From assembly GCA_023261645.1 (NCBI GenBank), contig JAHFOO010000008.1, positions 1-56,070 on the forward strand: a DNA stretch of 56,070 bases, in the 5' to 3' direction. Under the pieces are notes generated by a model. It worked only from the letters and a program-made list of their open reading frames with translations. It searched no databases and had not been told where the DNA came from. Below are positions 36,896 through 54,805 of this stretch, piece by piece (position 1 is the first letter of the stretch; every line of letters starts with the position of its first letter). The position numbers were made by a program, and so were the translations under genes. Source of the stretch: Candidatus Moraniibacteriota bacterium. Its GTDB lineage: Bacteria; Patescibacteriota; Minisyncoccia; Moranbacterales; UBA1568.

Positions 36896-36928
36896 CCGGT
36901 ATATATCGTTTCCACAAGAGTGAAGTCC

Positions 36929-37594
36929 TTATCGTACAGAAGTATTCAGAAATTCATTGAGAGAAGTGTTGATTTTCGAGAGGATGGATCCTTCGGATGG
37001 GAGAGGAATCGATTCTGATACGGAAATCAGATTCGTTTCTTCGGATGGGAGGAAGGTGAGAATGATTGTATCGGGTAACTGCACTCGTGTGCCGTACGCC
37101 AGGATATCCTGCGGGAGAGGACGGTCAGGATCGAGAGACAGCTGGTCACTTTTTATTTTTATGGGAATATTCTCTTCTGTCGGCTGGAGGGTTTCTTCTG
37201 ATCTTCTGATCGATGTCCCCAATACGAGAGGAGTACTCTCTTCGTTTATAACCGTTTCTTCTTTTGATGGCTGAGGGTTTTTCTTTGCCGGCACAGTCCA
37301 TCTCCAAGCACTCCCTTTTTCTTTTTTGTAAACAGCATTTTCTGCAACCGGTTTGTCGAGCTTGTACTTGATGCTTTGTAACACTTTGCCGTCAGGCGCA
37401 CGGAGTTCTATCTTTCCTTTTTGATTGGGGAGCGTGAAGAGAGAGAAATCGTGTGTGAGTTTAGCGTCTTTACTCGACCCGATAAAGAAATCTTCACGGA
37501 TGGGATGATTCGAGAGTGTCTTCCATCCGACAGCGATACTGTACCCTTTCAGATTTACTTTTTTCTTCTCTCGATTCTCGATGAGGAGCCACTC
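36929..37594 (-). pseudogene. 3' half of interrupted lamin-tail-domain/PKD surface protein gene
   Basis: EWLLIENREKKKVNLKGYSI...FTLPN..G.IELRAPDGK is the rest of the lamin-tail domain begun by ITSLLPNPSGIDTGNE at 54760-54810; joins in frame at the CACTC core. Confidence 0.88.
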
Positions 37595-37929
37595 ATGGAC
37601 TGTCCCACAATACGGAATCCTTTCAGGTGGTATTGAAGGCAGAAGTGGCAGATCAGGACTACTCAAAGGCCAATATGAACTTTTATACTGATACAGGACA
37701 GCTAAGGGGATTGCCGGGGCGAAAGATAGCAGGAAATTACGATTTGGAGTACCATTTATCTAGGACAAGTAATAAAGACGTCCAGAAGCAGATTCTGAAG
37801 CTTGTAGGGCAATACAGCAAAGAGGAAGGGGTTACTATCTCGTACTCACAGCGTCGTATTTGCTTCAAAAAAGGCCTGACCTTTTTAAGTGCAGAAATAG
37901 GGAAAAATGGGGTTAAAATAAGGAAGTAG
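37594..37929 (+). CDS. Detached C-terminal segment of the serine recombinase (in frame only after circularisation)
   Basis: HGLSHNTESFQVVLKAEV...IRK* (111 codons) is in frame with recombinase codon ACT 54758-54760 across the reconstructed attP. Confidence 0.7.
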   Translation, partial: HGLSHNTESFQVVLKAEVADQDYSKANMNFYTDTGQLRGLPGRKIAGNYDLEYHLSRTSNKDVQKQILKLVGQYSKEEGVTISYSQRRICFKKGLTFLSAEIGKNGVKIRK

Positions 37930-38006
37930 AGAAAAAATGAACCGACTGAGGTAATGAACCTCTTCGGACGCTTAATTTATTAATATTTATATTACAATTA
38001 CAGGGC

Positions 38007-38690
38007 ATGATCTACCAACATTCATATTTTCAACTAGATACAGAGGCAAAAAAAATCTTTGACGAAAACGGAAAAGAACTTGTTTTAACGGGCAACGCAT
38101 ATCGTATGCTCGTTTTTTTATGTGCGAATAAACACGCTTCGTTAACTAAGATAGGGGAATACCTTGATTGGGCGAAAGAATATACAGAAAACCATCTAAG
38201 GCAGTACAGATATAAAATTAACACGATCATTAGCAGAGAAGTCATTGAGTATAAGAATGGTATTTATTCGCTATTAGGAGAGATCAAAAATGTCGATAAA
38301 CTAAGCACTAACGGGCGTAATACGGATTTATTACAGGGAGACCCTTTAAAATCGAAGATGAAGGGTATGGAAAATCGTATGGAGACAAAATTCAATAAAC
38401 TCCCGGCTATTTTTGCTACCGTTTTATTACTGTTAGCGTTTTTTAGCTGGCCTTACGCCTTTTATACATTTCTGCGGATTGTGACAACTGGAGTGGCCGT
38501 ATATTACGCATATTACCTTTTCACAATTAAAAAACAGGATTATTGGTTTTGGGCCTTAGTGTTAATCGCAGTATTACTCAACCCTTTTGCCCCTATTTAT
38601 ATAGGCGACAGATCGATTTGGAGGATTGTAGATCTTATTGTAGCCATATTCTTTATTACCTTAGTTTGGAAACAAAAAAAGTATGAATAA
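38007..38690 (+). CDS. Putative winged-helix domain fused to a 4-TM (DUF6804-like) domain
   Basis: N-terminus resembles an OmpR/ToxR-type wHTH (F.LD......DENGKELVLTG..Y.ML.FL...GIY); C-terminal WPYAFYTFLRIV...LLNPFAPIY...W.IVD. Confidence 0.6.
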   Translation: MIYQHSYFQLDTEAKKIFDENGKELVLTGNAYRMLVFLCANKHASLTKIGEYLDWAKEYTENHLRQYRYKINTIISREVIEYKNGIYSLLGEIKNVDKLSTNGRNTDLLQGDPLKSKMKGMENRMETKFNKLPAIFATVLLLLAFFSWPYAFYTFLRIVTTGVAVYYAYYLFTIKKQDYWFWALVLIAVLLNPFAPIYIGDRSIWRIVDLIVAIFFITLVWKQKKYE

Positions 38691-39456
38691 TTTTCTGTTG
38701 AAAAGTGGAAGTGTGTTAGGTGCATCTTTGTTAGGATTGATAATACTAATAAACTTTTCTGCAGGCATAGTGTCTGGCGTGTGGCTTGCAATTTCAGGCA
38801 ATTGGGCAAACATATTCTATGGATTGCTTCTTTCTATTGTGATGCCGTTTGCATATACAGTTGTTGCCTTGCCTACGATGGCCATAATGCCATTAATGCT
38901 GAAGGTTATTGAAAAAAAGATTAAATCTGCGACCTTTGTTCTGGGATTTATCAATATTTTGTATTCAAACGGAATAATGATTGTTTGGACTTATTTTGTT
39001 TTTACAGAGTTCTCTAAAAATGCGAGTGGATTAATGGCTGTACCTCTAATTCTTTGGGGATATTCGACTGTTGTGGCACCACTTGCTTATATGGCCAGAA
39101 ACGAACCCCCAGATAGTACCGGGACATCATTGGGAATATTTCTTGCACAGGTTGCGTACATTCTAGCGACCGTTTTTTGGATGATTGGTCTTTCTGCTAG
39201 TTTTATACTTTGGGGCATGATTTTATTGGCACTAGCATTTACTTTGTTTTCAATATCTATTGTGATGAAGACCTTTGATGAGGAACAAAAAGTAATGACA
39301 TATCAAGAAGAACCGCCCAAAGTTATTGACGCTGAAATTGAAGAGCTTTTTAAAGATGATGAGACAGAAGTAGCTGTAAAATTTTGTAATAGTTGTGGAA
39401 AGGAGATTATACCCGGTAGTAACTTCTGTAAGTTTTGCGGTAAAAAATTAAATTAG
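38683..39456 (+). CDS. Multi-TM protein with C-terminal zinc ribbon
   Basis: FCNSCG...SNFCKFCG at the C-terminus. Confidence 0.75.
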   Translation: MNNFLLKSGSVLGASLLGLIILINFSAGIVSGVWLAISGNWANIFYGLLLSIVMPFAYTVVALPTMAIMPLMLKVIEKKIKSATFVLGFINILYSNGIMIVWTYFVFTEFSKNASGLMAVPLILWGYSTVVAPLAYMARNEPPDSTGTSLGIFLAQVAYILATVFWMIGLSASFILWGMILLALAFTLFSISIVMKTFDEEQKVMTYQEEPPKVIDAEIEELFKDDETEVAVKFCNSCGKEIIPGSNFCKFCGKKLN

Positions 39457-39462
39457 AAAGAT

Positions 39463-40044
39463 ATGTTTTGTAAAAATTGTGGAAAAGAAGTCAGTCAAGA
39501 AGCAAATTTTTGTAAAAATTGCGGCGACTCAACAAAAGAATTAATTGTAGAGTCACTAAACAGTACAAACAAAAGTGTGGTTTCTGAGAAAAAACTTGTC
39601 CCAGAACTTACAGAGGATGGTATTTCTAAGTACAGAGGTATTCATGGTTGGCTTATAGTAGTAGTTTTGGGGCTGTTTATTACAACTGGTTATGTAGGTT
39701 TTCAATTTCTGGATATATTTTTTGGCAGCGTTCAATATGGTGAAAATACTGGACTATTTGTTTATGATTTTTTGAGCATGGGCTCAGTTACGGTTTTGTC
39801 TATATATGTTATTTACCTTTTTTTTACAAAGAAAAGAAAGTTTCCAAAATACTATATTTCTTTGCTGATTCTTCTTATGGTAGTTAATATAATTACGCTC
39901 ATAGTAGTATCATCCTACTCAGTAACCGGAAGTGATCTTGCGGAATACTCAAATAACGCCGGGAGAGCCACTGTTCAAGCGATAGTTTGGGGATTATACG
40001 CAACTAAGTCTAGGCGTGTCAAAGCGACATTCGTGGAAAATTAG
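39463..40044 (+). CDS. Zinc-ribbon plus DUF2569-like membrane protein
   Basis: MFCKNCG...ANFCKNCG; GIHGWL...W.LY..KSRRVKATF. Confidence 0.78.
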   Translation: MFCKNCGKEVSQEANFCKNCGDSTKELIVESLNSTNKSVVSEKKLVPELTEDGISKYRGIHGWLIVVVLGLFITTGYVGFQFLDIFFGSVQYGENTGLFVYDFLSMGSVTVLSIYVIYLFFTKKRKFPKYYISLLILLMVVNIITLIVVSSYSVTGSDLAEYSNNAGRATVQAIVWGLYATKSRRVKATFVEN

Positions 40045-40067
40045 GCAATTATATAACTAAATGATCT

Positions 40068-40604
40068 ATGGATTGTCCGAGTTGTAGAAAAAGTATTGGT
40101 GCAGATGCTGTTTTCTGTAAGTACTGCGGAGTGGAAGTAGCCCCAATGCGAGTGAAACTTCTGGCTGAAATGTATATCGAGCCAGAAACACAAGAACATC
40201 CATCTGCGTTGCCCGTTGCACAAAGTATAAAAAAAATTCCACAACCTTCAATATGGGAGTCTATTAAAGGCTTGTCTTCATTATGGGATGTAGTCAAAAG
40301 TTCATCTGGAGTTGTCAGAGTGATTTTGTTATTTATAGGTCTGAATGTAATTTTATGGGGAGCTCAAGAGCTTTACTATTGGGGTGATTCACAAAAGATG
40401 GGGGAATTAGATACTCAAATTACGAGTATGGATAGTCAAATAAAAAGTATAGAAAGCTTTCCAAATACCACAACTCAAAGCCAATACGAAAGTTTAATTA
40501 ATAAGAGAAACAAGGCTGCAGATGAGTATAACGCTCTAGTTAAATCGTCTGGTACTAGATGGTATTTAATACCGATCCCTCTAGGTGGCCATTCACTAAA
40601 ATAA
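40068..40604 (+). CDS. Zinc-ribbon, single-TM protein
   Basis: MDCPSC...AVFCKYCG; TM; short coiled coil. Confidence 0.72.
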   Translation: MDCPSCRKSIGADAVFCKYCGVEVAPMRVKLLAEMYIEPETQEHPSALPVAQSIKKIPQPSIWESIKGLSSLWDVVKSSSGVVRVILLFIGLNVILWGAQELYYWGDSQKMGELDTQITSMDSQIKSIESFPNTTTQSQYESLINKRNKAADEYNALVKSSGTRWYLIPIPLGGHSLK

Positions 40605-40621
40605 CTATTAACTTTAAAAAT

Positions 40622-41203
40622 ATGTTTTGTACAGATTGTGGGAAGTCACTAGAGAAAGACAGCGTTTTTTGTGAATTCTGTGGGGCTAAACAAGCAGAAG
40701 CAGGGCCGACAACAGAACCGGGGGCATCTATTTCGGATCAAGTAATGAGTTTAAAAGGCGAGAGTCCAATCAATGCTTCAAAAGAAATTTTAAATAAAGA
40801 ACTTAAACAGATGGCTGACCATCTTGAGTTTCTAGGGTATGGGATTGAAAAGTTAGAAACTAGCGGAGATGACAAAAGAGAGAATGTTTTTGCACAGCAT
40901 CCAAGTAACCTTGATTTTACATTACTGGAAGTATTCCCAGGCTTTATTATTCTCAAAGTGCTAATGGCGACAAAAAAGAAGCCATCTTCAGAGATCGACG
41001 CTTTTATTAATGATATGAATAAGAACTTTATAATTTCGAAAATCTATCGTGAAATAGAGAATGAAACTGTATACCTCAGAATCGAATCAATTTATATGGG
41101 TGTTTACGTTAAGGATCTGTTTGTAAAGTTTATGGACCTGAACATTAGGGAGCATAATCAATTACGATCATCAGATGATTTTACTAATTTGTTTGTAAAT
41201 TAA
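40622..41203 (+). CDS. Zinc-ribbon protein with possible YbjN-like C-terminal domain
   Basis: MFCTDCG...SVFCEFCG; C-terminal alpha/beta domain. Confidence 0.68.
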   Translation: MFCTDCGKSLEKDSVFCEFCGAKQAEAGPTTEPGASISDQVMSLKGESPINASKEILNKELKQMADHLEFLGYGIEKLETSGDDKRENVFAQHPSNLDFTLLEVFPGFIILKVLMATKKKPSSEIDAFINDMNKNFIISKIYREIENETVYLRIESIYMGVYVKDLFVKFMDLNIREHNQLRSSDDFTNLFVN

Positions 41204-41207
41204 ATTA

Positions 41208-41744
41208 ATGGAAAAATTTAAATCAATAGTTTCGGCATTCTTTGTTATTATCGGCATAGCTTTTGGTATCTTCATATTTGTTAAAAGTTCTGTGCTTACC
41301 ATATGGTCGTCACCATCTGTTCCCGAAACGTATGCAATTAATGGTGCTGATGGTAGATCGATTAAAATAATATTTTTGCCAGAAAATAAAACTATAATGT
41401 GGTATAAAGATCCCAATGTTGGTTCTGAAGAATATAACTTAGTCGAGATGAAGGGAACATATGGGACGCATTATTTCTGGGGACTATGGAAAATAGAAGG
41501 CCCCGGTATTGCTTTTGGGTATAGATTTTATCCTGATGGAACTGAACCAGTTGTAATGGAGACAAAAACAATTCAAAAATACATGAACGGAAAAGGCGAT
41601 CCCAACTTTTCTCCAGTTGGTAAAATTACAAATACCACTTGGCTATTTCGGAAAGATTCTGCCAAGTTTCAGGATATGTGGTTGCAAAAAGAAGAAAACA
41701 ACAATTTATTTATTTCACAGTTATTAAATAACTTGGAGAGGTAA
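41208..41744 (+). CDS. Hypothetical membrane-anchored beta-rich protein
   Basis: N-terminal TM; in operon. Confidence 0.65.
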   Translation: MEKFKSIVSAFFVIIGIAFGIFIFVKSSVLTIWSSPSVPETYAINGADGRSIKIIFLPENKTIMWYKDPNVGSEEYNLVEMKGTYGTHYFWGLWKIEGPGIAFGYRFYPDGTEPVVMETKTIQKYMNGKGDPNFSPVGKITNTTWLFRKDSAKFQDMWLQKEENNNLFISQLLNNLER

Positions 41745-41764
41745 TTAATTTTAATTATAGTCAT

Positions 41765-42076
41765 ATGAAAAAGATTTTAATTTTCCCGCTGCTTTTGTCG
41801 GCATTATTACTATCAGGCTGCAGCGATACAAATTCCTCGGCACTTACTAACACTGCCGTGCCTTCAACAACATCGTCTAAAGCAACCGTACCTGCCGTAG
41901 CTCCCTCTACAAAAACATCCGCTTCTGAAAATACAACAAATCCAAATGTCAAAAAAAGTACCTCTGGGATCTGTCATGCTAAAGGGTCTACCTATTACGG
42001 TAGAACGTTGAATTTTACTGCTTACGATACTATAGATGATTGTCTTAATAGCGGGGGAAGAATGCCAAAAAAGTAA
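41765..42076 (+). CDS. Lipoprotein with small Cys/His C-terminal domain
   Basis: Lipobox LLSGC; S/T linker; KKSTSGICH..GSTYY.RT....D.CL.SGGR.PK. Confidence 0.75.
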   Translation: MKKILIFPLLLSALLLSGCSDTNSSALTNTAVPSTTSSKATVPAVAPSTKTSASENTTNPNVKKSTSGICHAKGSTYYGRTLNFTAYDTIDDCLNSGGRMPKK

Positions 42077-42081
42077 TTTGA

Positions 42082-42729
42082 ATGAGTATGGAGTTCGGTA
42101 CTGAAAACATGGGCAGAAAGAAAGCAATAGTATTATTTGCAGCCCTTTTTGTTTTTGTAGTTGCTGTCGCAGTTTATGCCGGATCATTACTCAGGCACCA
42201 ACGAGATGATATTGGGGTAATAGCTTCTCCTTTGACTGATACTCCTGCCAAAGAGATAGGTATCTTGCCGGAGCAAGGGACTGTTAGCGTGGAATCGGCT
42301 GAGGCAAAATGCCACGTTGTTGATGGCCTCCCTGACCTATTATGCACACCTGGGGTAACCGATTCTCGGGTTACACAAGAAAATATTAAAGACACAATTT
42401 GTAAGTCTGGTTATACAAAGACAGTCCGTCCTCCAGTTACAGTGACTTCAAAAATCAAAGAGCAAACAATGAAAGACTATGGATTTACAGATAGCCCAAG
42501 TAACTATGAGTTAGACCATCTTATTTCCCTGGAGCTTGGCGGCTCCCCGGATGATGTAAAGAATTTATTTCCTGAGCCCTATAATATTGAATTGGGTGCC
42601 ACAAAGAAAGACACTGTGGAAAATTATCTTCACGCTCAAGTATGTAGCGGGCTACTCACGCTTAAGGAAGCTCAGAAGGCAATCTCGGAAAACTGGGTGC
42701 TAGTGTATCAGACAAATATTGTGAAATAG
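42082..42729 (+). CDS. Secreted HNH-like nuclease-family protein
   Basis: N-terminal TM; LPD...TPG, TIC..GYT..VRP, YELDHLISLELGGS....NL.PE, VCSG. Confidence 0.65.
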   Translation: MSMEFGTENMGRKKAIVLFAALFVFVVAVAVYAGSLLRHQRDDIGVIASPLTDTPAKEIGILPEQGTVSVESAEAKCHVVDGLPDLLCTPGVTDSRVTQENIKDTICKSGYTKTVRPPVTVTSKIKEQTMKDYGFTDSPSNYELDHLISLELGGSPDDVKNLFPEPYNIELGATKKDTVENYLHAQVCSGLLTLKEAQKAISENWVLVYQTNIVK

Positions 42730-42756
42730 TTTGATATAATGATCAACTGAATTTTT

Positions 42757-44766
42757 ATGGTAGATGGAATCTTTATTTTTCTGGTTAGTGCGGCGGTTGT
42801 TGCTTTGGTGACAATCGCTAATAGATTGTTTGCGAATGGCGGAGATTCTTTGCGAGATAAGAAAGAGGGCCATAATGAAAAGAAACTTGAAACAGTACAG
42901 CTTACCGTAGTTAAAAGTGAGGCTAGTTTAAAAAAAACTGCTAATACAGTAGAAGAAATACCTGGTAAAAAGAAACTTGAAGTAACGACAACTCTACAAA
43001 AGAGAGTATGGACAGTAATAAAAAGAATCAGTAGAAAATATAACCACCTACTTCTGTTTGAGCTCCTAGTGATTCTTACCTGCTTATTTGGCTACATATC
43101 TATCTACAAGCTAGGATCGCCAAATGCTGAATATAACTCTTTCTATAATTATTATTTATTACAATACTTTTTTCTCAAAAAAATACTTCTAACTATTGCT
43201 ATAGCGGTAGGGGTAGCACTTTCTTTAATAATCGTTTTGGCTCTATTGAAAAAGAAACGTTTTAAGAAGAAATACGCAGTCCATTCTTTTTCAGTAGTTG
43301 CGGTCATAATCCTGGCTTTCAATATATCCTTTTTAGCTATCTATGCTTTTTCTTTTGTTGAAACTAGATACTTGCAATATGAAATATCTTCAAACCAAGA
43401 GACGCATGGACTTATCTGGGGCAATGATAAGCTTGTGTCAAAATTAGAGAGCGAAGTAGCGTCACCGCGGATAGTGAAAGCAGAAGAGAACCCAAGCAAT
43501 CAAATAGTTCGGTATATTGTCTCAAATAGAAAGAATAGAGGAGACTACTATTTGCAGAAGATATTAAATGGTGTACTAAACAAATTTCCTACAAACCTCG
43601 GTATTCCTAGTGAGGCTCCTTTGTTCATGTATAGTGATAATTTGTATATAAGAAAACTTGAAAAAGATTCTTATGCAGCGATCAGTCCAATTTTAGGCAA
43701 GCTTTTAGTAAAAGGTGCTTTACCAGATAGGAATATTAAAGATGAGCCCTCCCTCCTTGTAATGGATCGAGAAGAATACAATACCTTCCGTATAGACCAA
43801 ATTAATGAGCATATAGCAAAGATGAAGGATGCCATAGCACGAATTACGAAGGTAGTGAACTCCTACTACTCGGCAGTTTCCTATGATAAAGGGAGGGTTA
43901 ATTATAATGTAGGCATGGCAAATTCGATGATAGCAGAAGGAAACTCAGCCTATTCAAGTTGTATCCGAGCACAAAGCTGTACCTATAACTACATCCCCGG
44001 AACTTGCACATACTATCCATACGTTTATTGTAGTCCTGGATACTCTTATCAAACTTGCCTGCCAAGATATACTCCCTCATACTGTTCGGGTCAAATGGAT
44101 TTTTACTACAACCTTGCTGACGGATATAATAGAAATGCGAATGAATGGAGAGATCAATTGGGTTACGATCAGTATTATCTTGGAGTATATGTTGATTTAA
44201 GAGATACAGTAGAGACATATAAAGCTATGGCTGAAGCGTCTAAAGAAGACGTACCTTATGAGTTAGGTTTGTTTCAGCCGGATCTTGGTATAAAGGTTGT
44301 TTTGGAATCAGATAATCCAGAAACCGTGGCGGATAATATAGGTATCTTAGTCCATGAGTATCTTCACTACACGAGCTATGTTCCCGATATGAGTTTACCG
44401 ACATTCTTTGAAGAGGGTCTGACAGAATATTTCTCAAGAGAGATTGTTGACAAAAATATGGGAGTAAAGACAAAGATCGGGTACCCACTGATAACAAAAG
44501 TAATCGAAAGGATGACCGAAAAGATTTCGGAACAAGAGTTCAGAGACATATACTTTTCTAAAAATAGTGCTCTCCTAACGAGTACCCTGGATCGAGCTTA
44601 CGGTAAAGATTTTTCAAAGAAATACGAACTCTATTTTGAATTCATTTCCTATTTGCCACCAAAGGATGCTCTAGAAATTACAAATAAGTTTTTGGATAAG
44701 ATAGGTGTTGAAAAAATAGTTGAAGAAGACTTGTATAGTAAAGCGAGTGAGTTTAATGCCAATTGA
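42757..44766 (+). CDS. Membrane-anchored zincin-like metalloprotease with Cys-rich insert
   Basis: Several N-terminal TM helices; HEYLH...EEGLTEY. Confidence 0.7.
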   Translation: MVDGIFIFLVSAAVVALVTIANRLFANGGDSLRDKKEGHNEKKLETVQLTVVKSEASLKKTANTVEEIPGKKKLEVTTTLQKRVWTVIKRISRKYNHLLLFELLVILTCLFGYISIYKLGSPNAEYNSFYNYYLLQYFFLKKILLTIAIAVGVALSLIIVLALLKKKRFKKKYAVHSFSVVAVIILAFNISFLAIYAFSFVETRYLQYEISSNQETHGLIWGNDKLVSKLESEVASPRIVKAEENPSNQIVRYIVSNRKNRGDYYLQKILNGVLNKFPTNLGIPSEAPLFMYSDNLYIRKLEKDSYAAISPILGKLLVKGALPDRNIKDEPSLLVMDREEYNTFRIDQINEHIAKMKDAIARITKVVNSYYSAVSYDKGRVNYNVGMANSMIAEGNSAYSSCIRAQSCTYNYIPGTCTYYPYVYCSPGYSYQTCLPRYTPSYCSGQMDFYYNLADGYNRNANEWRDQLGYDQYYLGVYVDLRDTVETYKAMAEASKEDVPYELGLFQPDLGIKVVLESDNPETVADNIGILVHEYLHYTSYVPDMSLPTFFEEGLTEYFSREIVDKNMGVKTKIGYPLITKVIERMTEKISEQEFRDIYFSKNSALLTSTLDRAYGKDFSKKYELYFEFISYLPPKDALEITNKFLDKIGVEKIVEEDLYSKASEFNAN

Positions 44767-44779
44767 TTTAAAAGAGAAA

Positions 44780-45265
44780 CATATGATAGAAGAAATGTCA
44801 CAAATTATTAAAGATGAAAAAAATGGTTTTTTAGAAAAGTATCTTAATCGGGATACGGCTTTTATAACTGTTATTATTATTCTCGCTGGATTCTTTTTAG
44901 TACCACAGATATGGAGTAAAAATCCGTATAAGGCAGGTACGCAGTATTTTGTTTACCTTTTCCCAGATATTAATTCATCACTAAACTACAGACTTCCCGC
45001 AGATATTCTAATAGAGGAAGACTGTACTGGAGGGGAATGCGAACACGATATTCAAATAGAGACTGTTTACCTTGAGAATGGAAGTAGTAAGTATTTTGGA
45101 TGTATCGTTCAGCTCAAATATGAAAATTTCTGTAAAGATCAGGATGGAAAGGAATGGATGATTGTTTTGAGTGATTGGGAAGAAGCGAAAACAATAAAAG
45201 AGATTAAAGATTCAAAGAAAAAGGTAGATGATATTGTAAATAGCGTGATGAGTGAGGATCATTAG
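44780..45265 (+). CDS. Hypothetical single-TM protein
   Basis: ORF with TM and four Cys; start uncertain (44720-44800). Confidence 0.55.
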   Translation, partial: HMIEEMSQIIKDEKNGFLEKYLNRDTAFITVIIILAGFFLVPQIWSKNPYKAGTQYFVYLFPDINSSLNYRLPADILIEEDCTGGECEHDIQIETVYLENGSSKYFGCIVQLKYENFCKDQDGKEWMIVLSDWEEAKTIKEIKDSKKKVDDIVNSVMSEDH

Positions 45266-45288
45266 TTGTTCACCCTACAGAAAATACT

Positions 45289-45522
45289 TTGTATGAACTA
45301 GTGGCAAAGAATGGAACTCAAGTAACATCACAAACGCTCAATGTTCAGTATCCTTTATCAGTGAAGAAAACAGTTGCTCAAAATCCTGTAAATGTGGTTA
45401 ATGAAGCTTCTGATACTTCACAAAATGAAAATAATTCTAGTGCAGTCGGACTGTTGGTGGCGATAGTGGGTGGGGGAACTGTGTGGGCGGTAAGAAAATA
45501 TTTAGGAAAAAGGGTGCTCTAA
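45289..45522 (+). pseudogene. Probable gene remnant with C-terminal TM anchor
   Basis: No ATG start; ends in a TM helix plus basic tail. Confidence 0.35.
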
Positions 45523-45568
45523 GAGAATAGATTGTTAGAAATTTAGTGAAAGAAAATTATTGTGACTC

Positions 45569-46930: not shown

Positions 46931-46944
46931 AAATTTATTTCGTA

Positions 46945-47250
46945 TATGTAAAAACCCTTGTCCTCTGGCGAGCTTATCAGCATGCTCTTGGACAAGGGTT
47001 CTGTGGGCAAGCCCAGGCTATATTCATTGACATGTGTCCAAAAGGAGACACAAGGCTGACGGAACTACATTGATATAATAGTAATGACTATGACTCAAGA
47101 ATGGCTGCACTCTATCGTCGCTGACATCATTATTATGTTGTTCATCACGACCGCGAGCCGAGGCTTGCATATCGTTGTAAACACATCGCCTAACACCCCT
47201 AGAAGCAAGACGGTAGTATAGCCAATTCCTTCTTGAACCGAACGTTAGTC
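46945..47250 (-). ncRNA. DRT2-associated ncRNA (template plus scaffold)
   Basis: Lies between a sigma70 promoter and the RT start. Hairpins 46953-46963/46990-47000, 47004-47015, 47033-47038/47047-47052; long-range pairing of 47084-47106 with 47220-47252. Confidence 0.8.
47070..47183 (+). other. Candidate 114-nt neo-type repeat unit (hidden gene formed by cDNA concatenation)
   Basis: TATAAT at 47074-47079 near the unit start, TTGCAT at 47165-47170 near the end, ACA at 47067-69 and 47181-83 (offset 114), one stop-free frame. Confidence 0.65.
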
Positions 47251-47255
47251 ATAAC

Positions 47256-47284
47256 ATCATATCACAATGGATCGGTTTCCGCAA
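47256..47284 (-). promoter_or_regulatory. sigma70 promoter of the ncRNA-RT unit
   Basis: TTGCGG (47284-47279), N17, TATGAT (47261-47256) with extended TG. Confidence 0.7.
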
Positions 47285-47337
47285 GAGCTGAAGATGCTTC
47301 ATCTCTCTCGTTTTAATTTTGATAACGTTCTCATCTA

Positions 47338-47604
47338 CTAATAAATACGGAAGGCCTTACTCTTCTTCTTCCACATGCATGCGCTTATAGCGTCTTCTGA
47401 TGTTTTAAATTTATTATACTCATCAAATGTATAATAATCCCCTTTATCATTGGACACGACATTCTGTTCCCTTGGTGGCTGATAGTGAACTTCGCTGACG
47501 CACCAACGAGTTTTAGAAATGTACCACCATCCACCCAAAATCGGTACTCCAACTAATAGAGCAATGCCAAGAACCTTAATAATCTTTTTGTCAGTGTTAT
47601 TCAT
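47338..47604 (-). CDS. Small single-TM protein
   Basis: N-terminal TM; two Cys. Confidence 0.6.
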   Translation of the reverse strand: MNNTDKKIIKVLGIALLVGVPILGGWWYISKTRWCVSEVHYQPPREQNVVSNDKGDYYTFDEYNKFKTSEDAISACMWKKKSKAFRIY

Positions 47605-47904
47605 AGTGTTTTATTGTCGTTATTGAACATTATTTGCTTCTGTCTCCTGCCCCGTCGACCCGTTAAATAGGGGATTAAAATTAATTTGATTTAAAAATCA
47701 GGAAAAAAAATTAACAAAACTATTATTTTAAGCCATTACTTCGTTTAAAAAGGTATTTTGTTTTTTTATTCTTTAAACAAAACCCAGCTAAAATATTTTG
47801 ATAAATTTGATTTTTTTAGAAAAAAATATTTTGTCTTTTTCTGTTCAGGTCGTCATACATTTTTTAACTTAAGGGACTCTCAATCTCAATCCTCCTACCC
47901 CTGG

Positions 47905-48168
47905 CTACCAGAGATTAAAAAATACATACAAAGAAAGTGCCGTGATTAACAATTCTGCAAATAGACCAATGACAATCCAAGATTTTGTTACTGGAGTACT
48001 ATGATTTATTCCATTTTCTCGAACATCTTTTCTTAATGCAGAACTAGCAGAAAAATCGACCATGAGCAGAGCAACTATTGTCCAGCCTAGCTGTGATGGC
48101 AATGCAGAATCTGCCATTGACAAAAATATGAGTGCAGCAATACCAATTAGGTTAGAAATTATCGACAT
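47905..48168 (-). CDS. Small 3-TM membrane protein
   Basis: Hydrophobic 87-aa ORF. Confidence 0.6.
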   Translation of the reverse strand: MSIISNLIGIAALIFLSMADSALPSQLGWTIVALLMVDFSASSALRKDVRENGINHSTPVTKSWIVIGLFAELLITALSLYVFFNLW

Positions 48169-48200
48169 AGCGTTTTAATTAAGAGTTTCCACACGCGCAC

Positions 48201-48722
48201 CTATAGCTCCTTTTTTCCTATGCACTGGTTATAGTCAAAGGTATCTATGCTTTTCTTATTGCTTCTGCATCGACTTACTCTCTCATCCGTTTTAGTGTTT
48301 TGGTAATCGACGCTTAAATCTTCGTTTGCACACCCATCCTCTCTAAATTGCTTTTCCGCTAACTCTTTCCCAATCTGAGAAACTATCATGCCCTCTATAG
48401 GCAGTCTTCCTTGTAAGCACTCTATCTTTTTTTGGTTTACTCTAGACTCATTCATTTTCTGATTTACTATAATAGCGTCCATTTTTTGTTTTTCTGATTT
48501 TTCTGCAAACAAAGCAAGTGTCCCAAATACTATAAAAATAAGTAGAGCAATCGGTAGCAAAGCAATTATAATTTTTTTAGATTTATTATAGGAACTAGTG
48601 AGCTTCTGAGGCGTTAGCTGTTTTTTGATATTTACCATCGTACCTTCCAACCATTCGCCACAAAACCGACACTTTTTTGCATCATCCTTTACTTCTTCTG
48701 AACAAAATGAACATTTTTTCAT
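48201..48722 (-). CDS. Zinc-ribbon, single-TM protein
   Basis: MKKCSFCSEEV..DAKKCRFCGEWL; TM. Confidence 0.75.
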   Translation of the reverse strand: MKKCSFCSEEVKDDAKKCRFCGEWLEGTMVNIKKQLTPQKLTSSYNKSKKIIIALLPIALLIFIVFGTLALFAEKSEKQKMDAIIVNQKMNESRVNQKKIECLQGRLPIEGMIVSQIGKELAEKQFREDGCANEDLSVDYQNTKTDERVSRCRSNKKSIDTFDYNQCIGKKEL

Positions 48723-48743
48723 AATAGTTATTTCTTTTAAACT

Positions 48744-49301
48744 TTACAGGGGCGGATATACAACCCAAATAACAACCATAATGACAATAAAGAAGATTAT
48801 CCAGCTCCATTTCATTTTCATCTTGGCAGTCAACGTGTATTTAACTGGGATGAGAATATTCCAACTAAAAAGAAATATTGTTATCCCTATTCTCCAATTG
48901 AAAAAGATATACACTAACCCGAATAACGCACATATCGATATCGCATTATTTCCATACTTATGGAAGTAATATTCGGGATAAAACATTCTGTTTTGTTCTC
49001 TAAATTTTATATATTCATCGGGGCTAACCGTGTCTTTATACTTTTTAAATGCTTTATGCCTCGCAATAAAAAGAGGTATATAAAAAATGATAACACCCGC
49101 AAATGCAAAAATTAAAAACCATAAGAAATCGAGCTGGACGAGAGAAATGACTCCTGAAAACAAAACGCCTATCCCTACTATGCTTATCCAATGCATCTTA
49201 GCCGGACTAAGAACTTCTCGAAGTATATCTTTTTGCTCTATAGTCATTTCATCTGCGTCTAAGCCAAAACCTTTATCAAACATCTCTTTGTCGTTATCCA
49301 T
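48744..49301 (-). CDS. Hypothetical multi-TM protein
   Basis: About five hydrophobic segments. Confidence 0.65.
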   Translation of the reverse strand: MDNDKEMFDKGFGLDADEMTIEQKDILREVLSPAKMHWISIVGIGVLFSGVISLVQLDFLWFLIFAFAGVIIFYIPLFIARHKAFKKYKDTVSPDEYIKFREQNRMFYPEYYFHKYGNNAISICALFGLVYIFFNWRIGITIFLFSWNILIPVKYTLTAKMKMKWSWIIFFIVIMVVIWVVYPPL

Positions 49302-49319
49302 AATCTTTTTAGACCTGAA

Positions 49320-49574
49320 TTAAAAATAGTTCTCATGTTTGTTTCTGTCATGAAACCACGCCCAAATAAATAGCCACGCAACGATATATGTTAATGAAGT
49401 TTTGACACTCCAGTATGAGTCTGTAAGCCAAGCCATTCCTTCCCCAGTTCTTCTAAGAAAAAAAGAAAGTCCCATACAAAAAACCAGAATGAGTCCTGGC
49501 GTCAATGCGGCAAAAAACAAAGATACTAATATTTCTAAACAATATCTCCAAAAATTCGATTTTTCACTTCCCAT
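49320..49574 (-). CDS. Small 2-TM protein
   Basis: First gene of the leftward cargo operon. Confidence 0.6.
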   Translation of the reverse strand: MGSEKSNFWRYCLEILVSLFFAALTPGLILVFCMGLSFFLRRTGEGMAWLTDSYWSVKTSLTYIVAWLFIWAWFHDRNKHENYF

Positions 49575-49604
49575 AACTTTAACTAAGGATTATTTTTTAG
49601 ATAA

Positions 49605-49748
49605 CAAAAAAGGACAGCCGAGTTGTTCACCCACAACAGACAGCCTCGAAAGGAAGTCCAATCATGGAACTCGACTGCCCCTTACTACCCACGATTGGAT
49701 AGAAAAAAAGACAGTTTCCTTTCGAGAAAATCTATTGTAGGTGAACGG
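49605..49748 (-). promoter_or_regulatory. Structured leader (long hairpin whose loop pairs with the 3' flank, then U-tract)
   Basis: gttcacctacaata/tgttgtgggtgaac, ctcgaaaggaa/ttcctttcgag, tccaatcgtgg/ccatgattgga; loop gggcagtcgagtt complements downstream aactcggctgtcc plus TTTTTT; TATAAT just upstream (~49765-49770). Confidence 0.6.
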
Positions 49749-49821
49749 ATAAATATTATTACATATTATAGAAAAACACAAACCCAGCTTGATTGTAGAG
49801 TCTGCTTAGAGTAGGGTAAGA

Positions 49822-50730
49822 GTGAGTATTTTTGGATTCAATCTTATGAGCAAAAAAAAGCGGAATAATTATCAAGAGCAAGTGGAGGATCTTATAAAAC
49901 AAGGTAAAGATTTTGAGTATATAGAGAAATTTACTCAAGAAAATTATCCTGAGGAATGGGAGAGGGAAAAAGTGTCTATTGAGACATTCAACAAAAGGAT
50001 ACTAGAAGAAAATGAAAGGAGTATGAGCGCACAAGCATACACTAAGATATCACGTCATTTGGCTGATGTTGTAGTTAGTGCAGATTTTATAGATGAGATA
50101 CAAAAATTAAGGAGAAAATACAAAATACCAGAGAATGGGTTCTCTGTTAATGACCCACATGAAATTGAAGAGCATACCAAAATGAGTCTATGGCCAATCG
50201 AATGGAAATATATAGATGAAGACGAAGACTTAGACTTATACTTTAAAATTGAGGATGAATTAATTCGCCTTGCTATTGCTTTTGGATTACCGCCTCAATG
50301 TAGAGTTTTATTTGACCATTTAGTTTACCGGGATAAGAATTCGCAACTAAACTCAGACGCATCTTTGTGTTATATCAGCGATAGGCTGGAAGAACGAAAA
50401 TATAAAGATGAAATGGTTAATGATTTCTATTACCCGATAGCTATCAGGGTTCATCCGGGGGCATCTCAAAATGATATAACGGATTTTATTAAAAAAAATT
50501 ACACAAGCATTATTAAGCCACTTCAGGAAAAATACGAGGATAAGATGTGCCCTGTAGGAAAAACTCGAAATCGAAAAATCGATATACGGCAGCGTAACGA
50601 TTTCATATACGAAAATAGGGAGAAAAGCGGGAAAGAAATAGCTTCATTGGTATTAAGAAAATTTGGAGTATCTATTGACCATGGGCACGTTCTTAAAATA
50701 ATTTCCTTAGAGAGAAAAAGAAGAAGTTAA
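49822..50730 (+). CDS. Hypothetical protein, possible C-terminal HTH (element regulator?)
   Basis: 302-aa ORF ending RNDFIYE....GKEIASLV.RKFG..I....VLKII; start probably ATG 49846. Confidence 0.65.
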   Translation: MSIFGFNLMSKKKRNNYQEQVEDLIKQGKDFEYIEKFTQENYPEEWEREKVSIETFNKRILEENERSMSAQAYTKISRHLADVVVSADFIDEIQKLRRKYKIPENGFSVNDPHEIEEHTKMSLWPIEWKYIDEDEDLDLYFKIEDELIRLAIAFGLPPQCRVLFDHLVYRDKNSQLNSDASLCYISDRLEERKYKDEMVNDFYYPIAIRVHPGASQNDITDFIKKNYTSIIKPLQEKYEDKMCPVGKTRNRKIDIRQRNDFIYENREKSGKEIASLVLRKFGVSIDHGHVLKIISLERKRRS

Positions 50731-50772
50731 GTGTGGCATAGTTAGTTCTTATCCAAAAACAACCCGATCGAT

Positions 50773-50802
50773 TAACCTAGCTTTAAATAGCTAGGTTTTT
50801 TT
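50773..50802 (+). terminator. Intrinsic terminator
   Basis: aacctagct/agctaggtt plus T-run. Confidence 0.7.
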
Positions 50803-50838
50803 ATTTCCATCTGTAATTTTAATCATTAAGTAAAAAAT

Positions 50839-51186
50839 ATGTTCAGCCAGGATTCGTTATCTAAGTTACTAACAAAAAAAATAACATCTATGGAAGGCAA
50901 GGGATTTGGTATAGGGAGGATTTTCAACCGCTTAAGAAAAATGAGGGTTTGCGAATGCTTAAGTGATTTAGCGATACTAAGACTAATTCTTTATGAATTG
51001 CAAGGCTTAGAGAGGCTTCCATCAAGAAGCAAGATTTTGCATCATTTTCGAACCAAAATACCGAAAGAAGATTGGAGAGGAGTTCTGAAGACAGAAATTT
51101 TGAGCGATCTTTGTAATCCTATGAATATATCAAATTTTAAGGCACTTTCTTTGTGTAAGAGGTCTGTTAAATTGAAAAATCGATAA
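50839..51186 (+). CDS. Hypothetical basic protein
   Basis: 115-aa ORF in the element core module. Confidence 0.5.
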   Translation: MFSQDSLSKLLTKKITSMEGKGFGIGRIFNRLRKMRVCECLSDLAILRLILYELQGLERLPSRSKILHHFRTKIPKEDWRGVLKTEILSDLCNPMNISNFKALSLCKRSVKLKNR

Positions 51187-51195
51187 GTTACCTCA

Positions 51196-51357
51196 ATGAC
51201 CAAAGAATACCAGGTAAAACTGATGTTTTCTGAAAAAGAAGAAGATGAAAATAAACTTCTTTTGGTCTTTGAATATATCCTTAATCTTCAAAATAAAGAT
51301 AAACAAGATGAATCAAAAATACACGCAGGAAATGTTGAGGGAAATAGAAATAAGTGA
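51196..51357 (+). CDS. Small 53-aa ORF
   Basis: Manual ORF MTKEYQVKLMFSEKEEDENKLLLVFEYILNLQ...RNK, overlapping the next start. Confidence 0.4.
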   Translation: MTKEYQVKLMFSEKEEDENKLLLVFEYILNLQNKDKQDESKIHAGNVEGNRNK

Positions 51358-51952
51358 GCTTTCCGATTTTTCTCATGAACTGGAAAAAGTATGGAGGAGA
51401 TCTCGTTTAAAATTCACGGATAAGGAGCTTGTCTCCCTATTTCCTGAAGCCAAACAAATTATCTCTCAAAAAATTGAAGAATGGAAAGAAGTTTTAAAAT
51501 TGAAAAGAGAAACAGTTAGGTGTTCATTGAAAGAAATCTATAAACTAAATGTTGATGATCTATCAAAATGGTTTGGAGAATATATGGTTGAGGTATTCCT
51601 TTTCAATGAGGTAAAGGGAATTTATAAGCATATTGGTAGATTACAAAGACAGTTGATGCAGATTAATGGTGAACAAGGGGTTCGAATAGAATTTTGGGAC
51701 AATCAATTAGAGAAGGCACGAGGAAAACCAATAGCGGATATTGCAGAGCAAAATCTCCTAGTAAGAAATATCGGAAATAGATTTTCAGCTAAATGTCCTT
51801 TTCATGAAGACAAAACACCAAGCTTTTATATTTATCCAGAAACAAATACATATCACTGCTTTGGATGTCAGGCTCATGGGGATGTAATTAATTTAACCAT
51901 GCATTTATACGGACTTTCTTTTAAGGAGGCGGTACAAATGCTTAATCAATAA
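51308..51952 (+). CDS. CHC2 zinc-finger protein (DnaG-type Zn-binding domain at C-terminus, no TOPRIM)
   Basis: CPFHEDKTPSF......YHCFGC..HGDVI.......SFKEAV. Confidence 0.88.
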   Translation: MNQKYTQEMLREIEISELSDFSHELEKVWRRSRLKFTDKELVSLFPEAKQIISQKIEEWKEVLKLKRETVRCSLKEIYKLNVDDLSKWFGEYMVEVFLFNEVKGIYKHIGRLQRQLMQINGEQGVRIEFWDNQLEKARGKPIADIAEQNLLVRNIGNRFSAKCPFHEDKTPSFYIYPETNTYHCFGCQAHGDVINLTMHLYGLSFKEAVQMLNQ

Positions 51953-51958
51953 TATCGT

Positions 51959-53005
51959 ATGGATGCCTTTGAAAAGTTGAAAGAAGAAGCTAAAAATGAA
52001 GTCATTTCTGAGGGAAAAGGAATGAATTTTCTCACTATTAAGGATGTGTGGAATATGGTATTCCCTCCAAATAGATGGGTTGTGGATCAAATTGTCCCTT
52101 CTGAGGGTATTACAATCATCTCTGGTGCACCTGCGAGCTATAAGACGTGGCTTATCCTTCAGATGGCTATTAACATATCAAGAGGAGAATCGTTCTTAGG
52201 AAAGTTCAATACTGAGAAGGGGAATGTATTGATGATTGATGAGGAGAATCACCTTCAATTAGTTAAAGATAGACTTATTCTTTTAGGAGGAGATGATTTG
52301 CTCTCTATCTGTTTTCTTTCTCAACAAGACTTCTTAATCACAGACGAGAGAATGGTGAAGAAAGTGCTATCTATGTGTGAAGAGAAAAGTATATCAGTTA
52401 TATTTATCGATTCACTTGTGAGAATAAATCGTGCTGATGAGAATGATGCCTCTAGAATGTCTGAAGTCTTCCGAGCTATAAGAAGCCTTTGTAAGGCAGG
52501 GAAGACAGTTATTCTTACCCATCATGAGAAGAAAGAAGGGACATTTAAGCTCTCTCCTCAATCAAGAATGCGAGGATCATCAGATATTTCTGCTTCAGTT
52601 GATGCTCATCTAGCGATATCTCGAGATAGAGATAATAAGACATTTCTGATTCTCGAGCAGGCTAAGAATAGACGAGAAATGGAAATTGCTCCGTTTGGAG
52701 TCGAGGTTAAGAAAGAGAATAATCGTGTTTGGTTTGAATATAAAGGAGATTATGATATGGGGAAAAATAAGAAAGGTGAAGCCAGAGAGTCTATCCTCCA
52801 GATGCTCGAAGGCTATCCTGATGGTATGACGAAAGGAGATATTTCAATACAGATTTCTGAAACCTGTAAGATTGGAGCAAAGAGTTGTAGAGAAGCGTTG
52901 GATGATTTAATTAAAGAGGAGCTTGTGAAAGAAAAACCTGGTGTTGGTAATACGAAACACTGTGTATTAGCGAAATATTCTGTTGATGAACAAGGGGAGA
53001 TTTGA
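51959..53005 (+). CDS. RepA-like / AAA_25 (RecA-fold) ATPase-helicase
   Basis: W.VD.IVP..GITIISGAPASYKT (Walker A), IDEEN, FIDSL, THHEKK, RGSSDI. Confidence 0.85.
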   Translation: MDAFEKLKEEAKNEVISEGKGMNFLTIKDVWNMVFPPNRWVVDQIVPSEGITIISGAPASYKTWLILQMAINISRGESFLGKFNTEKGNVLMIDEENHLQLVKDRLILLGGDDLLSICFLSQQDFLITDERMVKKVLSMCEEKSISVIFIDSLVRINRADENDASRMSEVFRAIRSLCKAGKTVILTHHEKKEGTFKLSPQSRMRGSSDISASVDAHLAISRDRDNKTFLILEQAKNRREMEIAPFGVEVKKENNRVWFEYKGDYDMGKNKKGEARESILQMLEGYPDGMTKGDISIQISETCKIGAKSCREALDDLIKEELVKEKPGVGNTKHCVLAKYSVDEQGEI

Positions 53006-53072
53006 AATGGCGAATTGGCATGTATATATAGTAGTGCCATTTTGCCGATTCAAAGTGTGGTATAATGTAATT

Positions 53073-53190
53073 ACTTATCCAACAATGTTACCTGCGAGTT
53101 TTATTTTGCCAAACTAAAAGGGTAACCATGCTGACAAACCTCGCGGAATGTTGGATAAGTCATGGTTACCCCTTTAGTTTTTATTTTTAT
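53073..53190 (+). promoter_or_regulatory. Structured leader of the recombinase (interleaved inverted repeats plus U-tract)
   Basis: acttatccaaca (53073) / tgttggataagt (53149-53160); aaactaaaagggtaaccatg (53111-53130) / catggttacccctttagttt (53161-53180); TGnTATAAT at 53058-53066. Confidence 0.62.
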
Positions 53191-53194
53191 TATT

Positions 53195-54805
53195 ATGAAT
53201 AAGGCAGCAATATATCTTCGTGTTTCTAGCGAAGAACAAGTAAGAGGTTTTGGACTAGAAGTACAAGAAGAAAAACTGAGAGACTACTGTAAGTTGTATG
53301 ATTTTGAAATTGAGGAAAAACACGTATTTCGTGAGGAGGGTGTTAGCGGCGCAGAGAGAAATAGACCAGAGTTAAACCGAATGCTTGTTTGTGCTGAGAA
53401 GAAAGAATTTTCTGTTGTTCTCGTATATAAAATAGATCGTCTATCAAGACTATTACTACACCTTCTTGAGGTTACAAATAAATTCGAACAACTTGGTGTT
53501 GGCTTTCGTTCTGTTACTGAGCCTATCGATACAACTAACTCTTTAGGAAGATGTATTTTTCAGATTCTCGGATCATTTGCAGAGTTTGAAAGAGGGGTCA
53601 TCAGAGAGAGGACTTATGGTGGTCAAATCAAGAATAAACAGCAAGGAAATTGGGTGAGCGGTATTACTTCTTATGGTCGTGATTATGATAAAGTCACAAA
53701 AAAACTTGCAGTGAATGAAGAAGAAGATAAATGGGTTCAAAAAATGTTTGAATGGATGACGAAAGATAGAATGTCTTTACATGGTATTGCAGATAGACTT
53801 AATGCTTTAGGTGTCCCAACAAAGTATGACAATCTTGGAAAAAAGAAAAAGGTGAACGGAACTTGTTATTGGAGACCGAGAGCCGTAGGAAGAATTATTG
53901 CTAACAGTACCTATACTGGCACCTTCACTTATAATAAATATGAGAATTCAACAGTTGGCAGTAAGTTACGACCAGAGGATGAATGGATTCCTATTGAAAC
54001 ACCTAAAACAATCAGTAAGGAAATATTTGATCTAGCTCAAGAACAACTTAAATCAAATAGGCGCTTTTCATTAAAGAATGCAAGACATATTTATCTTTTT
54101 TCTGGAATACTTAATTGTGGGGACTGCGGGGGCAGATATGCAGCGAGTTATGATACGGGTAGGAAGACGATGTCAGAAATACAGAAGAAAAGATATTACT
54201 GTAATAATACTCGAAAATATGTTCGTCAGCTGACGTGTAAAGTTCCTAGTATTACTGAACACAGACTAGCAAACCCTATTTGGGAGAAACTTCTTGGTTT
54301 GCTGGAGGATCCAAATGTTGCACTTGAACAATTAGAAAAATTGAACGAGAAAACTGGAGAGCTTAATGATGCTCACACAAGACTAGCCGAAGCAGAGACT
54401 CTTTTGGAGAAAAATACTGTAAAACAGAAGAAGCTTTTAGATGCTTTCTTAGAAGTGGAGGGCGGACTTGAACAGAAGGACTTTCTCTCTAGAAAGCATG
54501 ATTTAGAGGAAGATAAGAATAAGCTTTTAGATGAGAAGCGACGTTATGAGTCAATGCTTATATCTGATGGCGAGAAGAATACTCGTGTAAATGCGATTCA
54601 GATTATGTATCGAAAAATCAAAGAAAACCTTACTAATATTTCTTATGAACAAAAGAGAGAGGTGCTGAAGATGTTGGTAAATAAGGTTATTGTTACTGGT
54701 TCTGAGATAGATATTCACTGCAATATACCCTATCAATTTGCTTTTGCGGAACAGAGCACTCGTTTCCCGTATCGATCCCGGAAGGATTCGGCAGAAGGGA
54801 AGTGA
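53195..54805 (+). CDS. Large serine recombinase (integrase); integrated-state form reads across the att site
   Basis: AAIYLRVSS.EQ, EEGVSG...RPEL, VYKIDRLSR, AEFER..I.ER, Zn ribbon LNCGDCG...YYC...C, coiled coil; last 14 codons derive from host DNA. Confidence 0.95.
   Translation: MNKAAIYLRVSSEEQVRGFGLEVQEEKLRDYCKLYDFEIEEKHVFREEGVSGAERNRPELNRMLVCAEKKEFSVVLVYKIDRLSRLLLHLLEVTNKFEQLGVGFRSVTEPIDTTNSLGRCIFQILGSFAEFERGVIRERTYGGQIKNKQQGNWVSGITSYGRDYDKVTKKLAVNEEEDKWVQKMFEWMTKDRMSLHGIADRLNALGVPTKYDNLGKKKKVNGTCYWRPRAVGRIIANSTYTGTFTYNKYENSTVGSKLRPEDEWIPIETPKTISKEIFDLAQEQLKSNRRFSLKNARHIYLFSGILNCGDCGGRYAASYDTGRKTMSEIQKKRYYCNNTRKYVRQLTCKVPSITEHRLANPIWEKLLGLLEDPNVALEQLEKLNEKTGELNDAHTRLAEAETLLEKNTVKQKKLLDAFLEVEGGLEQKDFLSRKHDLEEDKNKLLDEKRRYESMLISDGEKNTRVNAIQIMYRKIKENLTNISYEQKREVLKMLVNKVIVTGSEIDIHCNIPYQFAFAEQSTRFPYRSRKDSAEGK

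Follow-up and report, generated by a model that had tools for sequence, protein, structure and literature searches.

The window analyzed here, a stretch of 56,070 nucleotides from contig JAHFOO010000008.1 of a Candidatus Moraniibacteriota bacterium, contains an integrative element of 17,167 bp that carries the gene of a serine integrase. The attachment site of the free element, attP, very probably lies inside the 3′ part of this integrase gene, and one gene would accordingly give two proteins depending on the state of the element, a 633-aa isoform in the free circle and a 536-aa isoform in the integrated copy. Integration exchanges a tail of 111 codons for a short end read from host DNA. The evidence consists of the open frame across the rebuilt attP in the window and in its relatives, an exact empty site, and a homologous recombinase in which core and tail are contiguous.

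The integrase gene in the integrated and the circular form

The two parts of the gene in the window are:

53195..54805, + strand: integrase ORF in the integrated form, 536 aa; the element-encoded core, codons 1–522, ends at 54760/54761
37595..37929, + strand: far end of the integrase gene, 111 codons and stop; its first codon, CAT, is completed by C54761

In the integrated form the last 14 codons (54762–54802) and the stop codon (54803–54805) are host DNA read antisense, and the protein translated from ATG 53195 ends with ...AEQST + RFPYRSRKDSAEGK*. This start is the likeliest one, as relatives begin with MNKA..; starting from the upstream ATG 53162 would lengthen the protein by 11 residues. 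The translation reproduced a claim of the first-pass annotation, which had been made from the letters alone, namely that the ORF runs through the right junction of the element to give 536 aa.

The pentanucleotide CACTC occurs at 37590–37594 and again at 54757–54761, and joining 54761 to 37595 keeps the frame. Read by script across this joint, the gene comprises 522 + 111 = 633 codons with the stop at 37927–37929. The earlier proposal that circularization at CACTC yields 111 uninterrupted codons ending at 37929, and a protein of about 633 aa, was obtained again in this way. At the left junction of the integrated element, attL, TGA 37582–37584 stops the tail frame four codons ahead of the joint, leaving an open frame of 114 aa. 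Therefore the tail can be read only from the circle or from the internal GTG 37627, and the orphan ORF 37627–37929 is only the piece after this first GTG (100 aa). Neither promoter-like nor terminator-like sites were found in 37300–38100 (0 of each), a search whose consensus may not suit this phylum. When the 330-nt tail stretch was shuffled 20,000 times, only 7 of the results had no in-frame stop, so the open frame is more than chance; in the stretch itself, stops abound in the five other frames.

The core that both isoforms share contains the expected catalytic, recombinase and zinc-ribbon domains. Pfam matches within integrase residues 4–366 are PF00239 Resolvase (5e-37, residues 4–153), PF07508 Recombinase (1.2e-18) and PF13408 Zn_ribbon_recom (2.7e-11). 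The family profile matches the catalytic domain of the TP901-1 integrase with 5.9e-35 and aligns with the SPbeta integrase at positions 56–503 and with the A118 integrase up to 508, of 522. Judged by its domain content, the 522-residue core is a bona fide large serine recombinase (LSR) with all canonical domains. Since the cut, after residue 522, lies beyond all elements shared with solved LSRs, integration exchanges an appendage and does not split the enzyme.

The element and its host gene

The element interrupts a gene for a protein with lamin-tail domains (LTD). Its limits and the two parts of the host gene are:

37595..54761, + strand: integrative element, 17,167 bp; 37590–54756 is equally valid, CACTC being common to both ends
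54762..56051, − strand: host gene, N-terminal part, with two complete LTD domains, one PKD domain and the beginning of the third LTD domain
36929..37594, − strand: host gene, C-terminal part, which begins inside the third LTD domain

The boundaries are independently supported by a contig of sequencing run X3 (3,166 nt, depth 187), which joins 37589 to 54757 and is the exact empty site. In this contig 17,167 bases are missing, five letters fit either side, and 0 differences occur over 36800–37589 and 54757–55623. X1 and X2 are the probable source runs; run X3 differs from them both in study and in habitat label. The contig is an unoccupied attB in a near-identical genome, and because the empty site is exact and the contig independent, the stretch 37595–54761 is a discrete insertion in the LTD gene. 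The G+C content of the element is 36.1%, compared with 45.1% in the flanks.

In silico excision restores one uninterrupted host ORF on the minus strand. The N-terminal part of the host protein gives a Pfam LTD match of 5.2e-28, plus PKD, the LTD matches lying at 55164–55448 and 55638–55979. A further LTD profile match at 37364–37594 has profile position 23 as its first aligned position, exactly at the junction. In the genome itself, that of a groundwater bacterium with only 840 kb, integrase and tail each occur in one copy. Rfam and tRNA scans of 36800–55800 gave no match.

Relatives of the integrase

The search with the integrase gave 433 proteins at E ≤ 1e-20; the best 120 were listed and 31 of those retrieved. 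Alignment A3 consists of the window protein and 12 relatives that are 41–75% identical to it. Q520 and T522 are invariant in 13/13 and the sequence is shared up to this point. Twelve of the 13 then diverge completely and end after 9–34 unrelated residues; P0001 alone continues into the tail. The relatives' records are assigned to Patescibacteria/Saccharibacteria, and integrase relatives in viral contigs are at most 35% identical.

Genome and metagenome contig scans provided the loci L002, L003, L092 and L093 for the att-site analysis, with L004–L081 and L096–L229 (≤35% identity) set aside. L003 is an 8,872-bp Patescibacteria contig, with L095 as a near-identical metagenome contig, and carries the integrase P0013 (43% identical) at its right end and the tail ORF P0125 at its left end. 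With the crossover placed at TC, its rebuilt joint reads GQST-RSLSHNRKLF... and stays in frame for 157 codons. L002 is a Saccharibacteria locus (L094 is identical) with an element of ~20.8 kb. For this locus the P′-arm pattern gave 0 strict matches in G001 and 9 loose ones, only the attR P arm being relevant, and the left end was recovered via the LTD profile, through a partial LTD at G001:C3:19320-19562, here L091. The rebuilt joint of L002 and L091 is in frame for 44 codons, which do not match the tail profile.

Thus the frame is open across the rebuilt attP in 3/3 elements with both ends recovered (window 111, L003 157, L002 with L091 44 codons), and the expectation that relatives keep the frame across attP was borne out. 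The architecture is a family trait and not an accident of the window copy.

Attachment sites and target motif

The two junctions in the window are:

37565..37622, + strand: attL, with host B arm, CACTC 37590–37594, TC 37593–37594 and element P′ arm (ATGGAC TGTCCCACAAT)
54735..54790, + strand: attR, with element P arm (TTTGCGGAACAGAGCAC), TC 54760–54761 and host B′ arm

Comparison of the P arm with the reverse complement of the P′ arm gave 15 matching positions of 26 for the window and 20 and 18 for the other two elements, with TTGnGGGACA and TGTCCCnCAA as core motifs. The imperfect inverted arms noted before (11/15) were recovered and correspond to 15/26 over the longer arms. Between the B and B′ arms only 7, 8 and 8 of 26 positions match. 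No dinucleotide other than TC, which is central, is shared by attL and attR across all three elements. On this basis we infer that TC, within the shared CACTC, is the crossover dinucleotide.

All four attR junctions for which DNA is at hand (window, L002, L003 and L092) abut the antisense of ..(L/F)LP(N/D)PxGxDxxx(E/N/G)-E.., an LTD signature, and the host ORFs at these junctions encode LTD proteins. The insertion point is the Glu codon of the conserved LTD motif ...NPxGxDxxxE-W..., on the opposite strand. Four junctions in the same motif suggest a recombinase family whose target is the signature of a protein domain rather than a single locus. Since the attR junctions abut this antisense signature, the host-encoded integrase ends are antisense LTD codons. 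The C-terminal 9–34 residues of the deposited proteins P0003–P0015 are most likely of the same origin, which would make these entries annotation chimeras; for P0008 (L002) and P0013 (L003) this was confirmed at the DNA level. As a side observation, host genes with several LTD repeats, three in the window gene, offer several near-identical candidate landing sites per genome.

Conservation of the tail

The fused form that the first-pass annotation proposed to look for among homologous recombinases exists. P0001 is an LSR of 634 aa with core and tail contiguous, reads ...VGQSTHGLSHNTESFQV... across the cut point of the window, and is present on 2 contigs, of which the longer has 12,902 nt. It is the only long protein containing the tail, both at E ≤ 0.01 among 95 candidates and in a profile search among 8,000 (1 each). 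The window protein is identical to P0001 at 386/522 core positions (73.9%) and at 73/110 tail positions (66.4%); for L003 the values are 224/517 (43%) and 37/110 (34%). P0001 also conserves the residues from the joint up to the GTG, and the tails end with KIRK in the window and EIMV in P0001.

Nine proteins reached E ≤ 0.001 in an exhaustive HMMER search of 1.84 billion representatives with the tail. All of the top five are tails, namely the window's own ORF and P0122, P0123, P0124 and P0125, which are annotated as small orphan proteins. The other four (P0126–P0129) are long repetitive proteins with partial matches, P0129 being a repeat protein. P0122 starts no more than two residues from the position equivalent to the junction (MFHCLSHNNKTF..). 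Tail relatives were absent from viral contigs, and the tail profile had no match in the genomes behind L002, L004, L005, L014 and L079, a negative that shows little.

Homologous orphan tails together with P0001 bear out the idea that the tail is conserved as a protein, and the open frame across the joint together with the fused P0001 likewise substantiates the assignment of the orphan ORF as the far end of the integrase. At the level of sequence, the 111-residue tail is real coding sequence. It appears to be under purifying selection and hence would do something in the free state. Because attL offers no start before 37627 and no promoter-like site, this selection most plausibly acts on the tail as part of the long integrase.

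An independent tail gene of 100 aa starting at GTG 37627 could be imagined instead, the continuity with int being a coincidence and P0001 an artefact of gene calling or assembly. The in-frame GTG, and the fact that ORF callers list the orphan tails separately (P0121–P0125), would agree with such a gene. We consider it very improbable, as the continuity of the frame recurs in 3/3 elements, P0122 begins almost at the junction-equivalent position, the residues ahead of the GTG are conserved in P0001, P0001 is found on 2 contigs, and attL lacks a promoter-like site upstream.

The end of the tail (ISYSQRRICFKKGLTFL.., 37840–37926) resembles the end of the integrase core (ISYEQKREVLKMLVNKV.., 54640–54735), with E 0.16 in the profile comparison, which is not significant. 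A duplication of the integrase C-terminus as the source of the tail was considered when MAFFT aligned the tails to the last strands of the integrase, and was rejected by the profile comparison: the first hhalign match was P0001's own tail in A3, and with P0001 removed E was 0.16 and the probability 0.4%.

Predicted structure of the tail

Pfam DUF5655 matches P0125, the tail of L003, with 27.7 bits at a cut-off of 24; P0122 and P0124 have no Pfam match. The literature on DUF5655 yielded one unrelated paper only. An AlphaFold2 model of the window tail from a six-row alignment has a mean pLDDT of 74. Residues 50–110 exceed 90 and form a helix and four strands, residues 1–20, including the codons of the P′ arm, are disordered (pLDDT <50), and confidence stays low to about residue 45.

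A Foldseek search of the tail against the PDB gave nothing at E ≤ 0.001, and sequence matches to solved structures gave nothing below E 0.6. With an exhaustive structural aligner, for which Z values of 7–10 are by its own note only moderately above background, 2i8d_B ranked highest for the window tail, with Z 7.9 and an rmsd of 2.3 over 63 residues that span only positions 2–66 of this 121-residue chain, followed by a YdhG-like protein with Z 5.4. The model of the L003 tail (157 aa, mean pLDDT 69) matched the YdhG-like 9t2w_A with Z 10.2 over 97 aligned residues, then YjbR and DUF419 proteins. According to these models the window tail appears to be a flexible linker followed by half of a YdhG-like/DUF5655 fold, and from the modelled fold no function follows. 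Complex prediction of integrase residues 290–522 (zinc-ribbon/coiled-coil) with tail residues 20–110 gave no answer (score 0.00) and is evidence in neither direction.

Possible roles of the two isoforms

In the free (attP) configuration the gene encodes a 633-aa integrase composed of the core, a poorly ordered segment that has the P′ arm as its first codons and a folded alpha/beta module. The integrated copy encodes the same core followed by 14 host-encoded residues. The long form, available only from the free circle, would be the enzyme that integrates; the short form, as sole form of the integrated copy, would be the enzyme for excision, presumably with a partner acting as recombination directionality factor (RDF).

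Whether the exchange of the tail matters for the enzyme is a separate matter, and a real functional difference between the isoforms seems to us possible at somewhat less than even chances. Our leading guess, offered tentatively, is a tail that is dispensable for catalysis and modulates how active, stable or site-selective the integrating enzyme is; recombination direction and oligomerization are further properties on which it may act. That it serves as a built-in sensor of DNA topology, with the circle form biased one way (for example, attP x attB favoured or attL x attR blocked) and the inserted form the opposite way, is unlikely.

Several observations weigh against a tail that is essential to the family, or against the two-isoform gene itself. 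No circle joint, in which the right end of the element leads back to the left one, occurs among the contigs of four runs, and contigs cannot show rare forms. P0001 was analyzed as a protein sequence, and its contig may or may not be a circle. The window tail has no Pfam or NCBIfam match; like the tail of P0001, with which it shares the end point, it appears to correspond to the first half of the fold present in L003, P0122 and P0124. The folded domain occurs in 2/3 elements, the 44-aa tail of L002/L091 being devoid of it. P0014 (42% identical) was kept out of A3, as it does not have the GQST ending. Two more distant members, P0026 (..AGQPT-GELSRKH..) and P0040 (..AGQAA-QRLSRKD..), end after ~30–45 residues and look like un-integrated forms with short natural tails. 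The 49%-identical integrase of L093, on a 97-kb metagenome contig (11480–11700), stops 16 residues past the G-Q of the motif (GQA + MNMSSCKTNPRKK). Its site is palindromic (GGGAC-16 nt-GTCC), has the centre GA, complementary to TC, in place of TC, and looks like an intact attP; L093 may represent a member that is not integrated, or has the opposite orientation, and sits on a large replicon. Since relatives such as L002/L091, L093, P0026 and P0040 lack the domain, recombination in this integrase family does not need it. A regulatory role is tempered by the same cases and by the short form, which retains all canonical domains.

These observations also allow for a neutral passenger, a reading that we take seriously without favouring it. 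In that case attP would simply lie in the last codons of int and both isoforms would recombine equally; the tail would stem from a separate small downstream DUF5655 gene that was read into frame, and the coding constraint would perhaps protect attP from drift. The absent or short tail domain in the four cases just named, the half fold of the window and the completeness of the short form are consistent with it. It is more difficult to reconcile with a tail identity of 66% where the core has 74% and of 34% where the core has 43%, with the shortened end point common to the window and P0001, and with an attL tail that has neither an in-frame start before GTG 37627 nor a promoter-like site.

Comparison with known systems

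Canonical LSRs (SPbeta SprA, A118, Bxb1 and phiC31) resemble the window system in their set of domains, in short att sites whose inverted arms flank a 2-bp crossover, and in inserting into host genes. In these systems attP lies beside int and is not known to lie inside it, and the protein is the same in both states. Engineered C-terminal fusions of RDF and integrase reportedly demonstrate that a C-terminal add-on can set the direction of recombination. PDB 9dxd, named as a YokA-YotN fusion, is among the matches of the family profile to structures; for the window tail, no likeness to a known RDF was detected. TnpX of Tn4451/Tn4453 is an LSR with state-dependent expression, as the circle joint is reported to create a promoter. 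In contrast to the window, the joint alters transcription there and not the protein sequence.

A closer likeness is offered by the ‘suicidal’ integrases of SSV1, pTN3 and pT26-2, for which a review describes attP in the recombinase's own gene and different products in the free and the integrated state (PMC8371274). As this review presents them, such tyrosine integrases are exclusive to archaea, their N-terminal functional part being split from the C-terminal one (PMC8371274). The window attP also lies inside the recombinase gene, which is rewritten by integration. However, the enzyme is by its Pfam matches a bacterial serine recombinase and not a tyrosine recombinase of the archaeal Phage_integr_3 group, and the cut falls after the canonical domains so that an accessory tail alone is exchanged. 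Control of the suicidal type, as proposed for SSV1-type tyrosine integrases, is conceivable here too and in our view improbable: the short form would be inactive or unstable, and integration would be irreversible unless a second, free element provided the long enzyme. The position of attP inside the gene as in SSV1-type systems (PMC8371274) and the integrated form of 12/13 A3 members speak for it. Yet the break follows the last element shared with solved LSRs and does not fall between functional domains; the exact empty site in a near-identical genome fits excision, and equally a site that was never occupied.

In integration-dependent immunity of the BPs type, described also for prophages of Bifidobacterium and M. 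abscessus, attP is located near the 3′ end of the repressor gene (PMC6109161, PMC8092301). The accounts of these systems report a tyrosine integrase and the removal of an ssrA-like degradation tag of ~18 residues (PMC6109161, PMC8092301). Similar to these repressors, the products of the two states in the window differ only at the C-terminus. The rewritten gene is, in contrast, that of the serine integrase itself, and the removed piece has 111 aa with a folded domain. The defining features of both classes were tested and are lacking in the window system, which consequently is a member of neither; the comparison with SSV1 and BPs drawn in the first-pass annotation is apt as an analogy and goes no further. 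We found no published serine integrase with attP in its own gene (the large LSR survey PMC10083194 was among the literature consulted), and the supplementary att-site tables of Durrant et al. might hold overlapping cases.

Other features of the element

Three further genes of the element were assigned:

51245..51952, + strand: DnaG-type zinc-finger protein, replication module directly upstream of int
51959..53005, + strand: AAA_25/DnaB-like ATPase, replication module directly upstream of int
45569–46930, − strand: reverse transcriptase ORF, 453 aa; closest model Drt2 (E 9e-88, 295 bits, below the cut-off of 390)

Besides the antiviral Drt2 model, those of group II introns and Drt3a match the reverse transcriptase, though more weakly; the gene probably serves the element as defence cargo. 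A PHROGs search with ten element ORFs matched only the reverse transcriptase and one small ORF and revealed no virion genes. Rather than a phage, the element appears to be a replicative integrative element that carries defence genes as cargo.

The regions 38683–41203 and 48201–48722 encode small proteins, each of which has a zinc-ribbon at its N- or C-terminus as well as predicted membrane parts. DUF2569 and DUF6804 occur nearby, and DNA repeats of ~29 nt (family D1) are found at the starts of these genes. The series looks like a paralogous cargo family.

The segment between 49590 and 49760 is strongly structured, with an inverted repeat (49625–49655 / 49716–49746) and a predicted RNA fold of −44.7 kcal/mol (z −4.3; equalled by 0/200 shuffles). 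A number of contigs from other runs break off there, an Rfam match was not obtained for this segment, and in run X4 related pieces of ~100 nt reach a depth of 426–511, far above their surroundings. The segment may represent an origin, a repeat or a small RNA of wide distribution.

Significance

For the mining of integrases the consequence is a practical one. With chimeric, host-encoded C-termini in 12/13 aligned proteins, the natural integrating enzyme can be read only from the rebuilt attP.

The system would be a bacterial serine-recombinase counterpart of the suicidal integrases, of a milder kind, as a tail is exchanged and the enzyme remains unsplit. It would provide a natural case of one integrase gene with two proteins determined by the free or inserted state, and it bears on how serine integrases set the direction of recombination. 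If the tail did act as a sensor of topology, the integrase would combine enzyme and directionality switch in one natural protein, so that a separate RDF would be less necessary or superfluous, and this switch would be coupled to the targeting of a conserved LTD motif with many landing sites in Patescibacteria.

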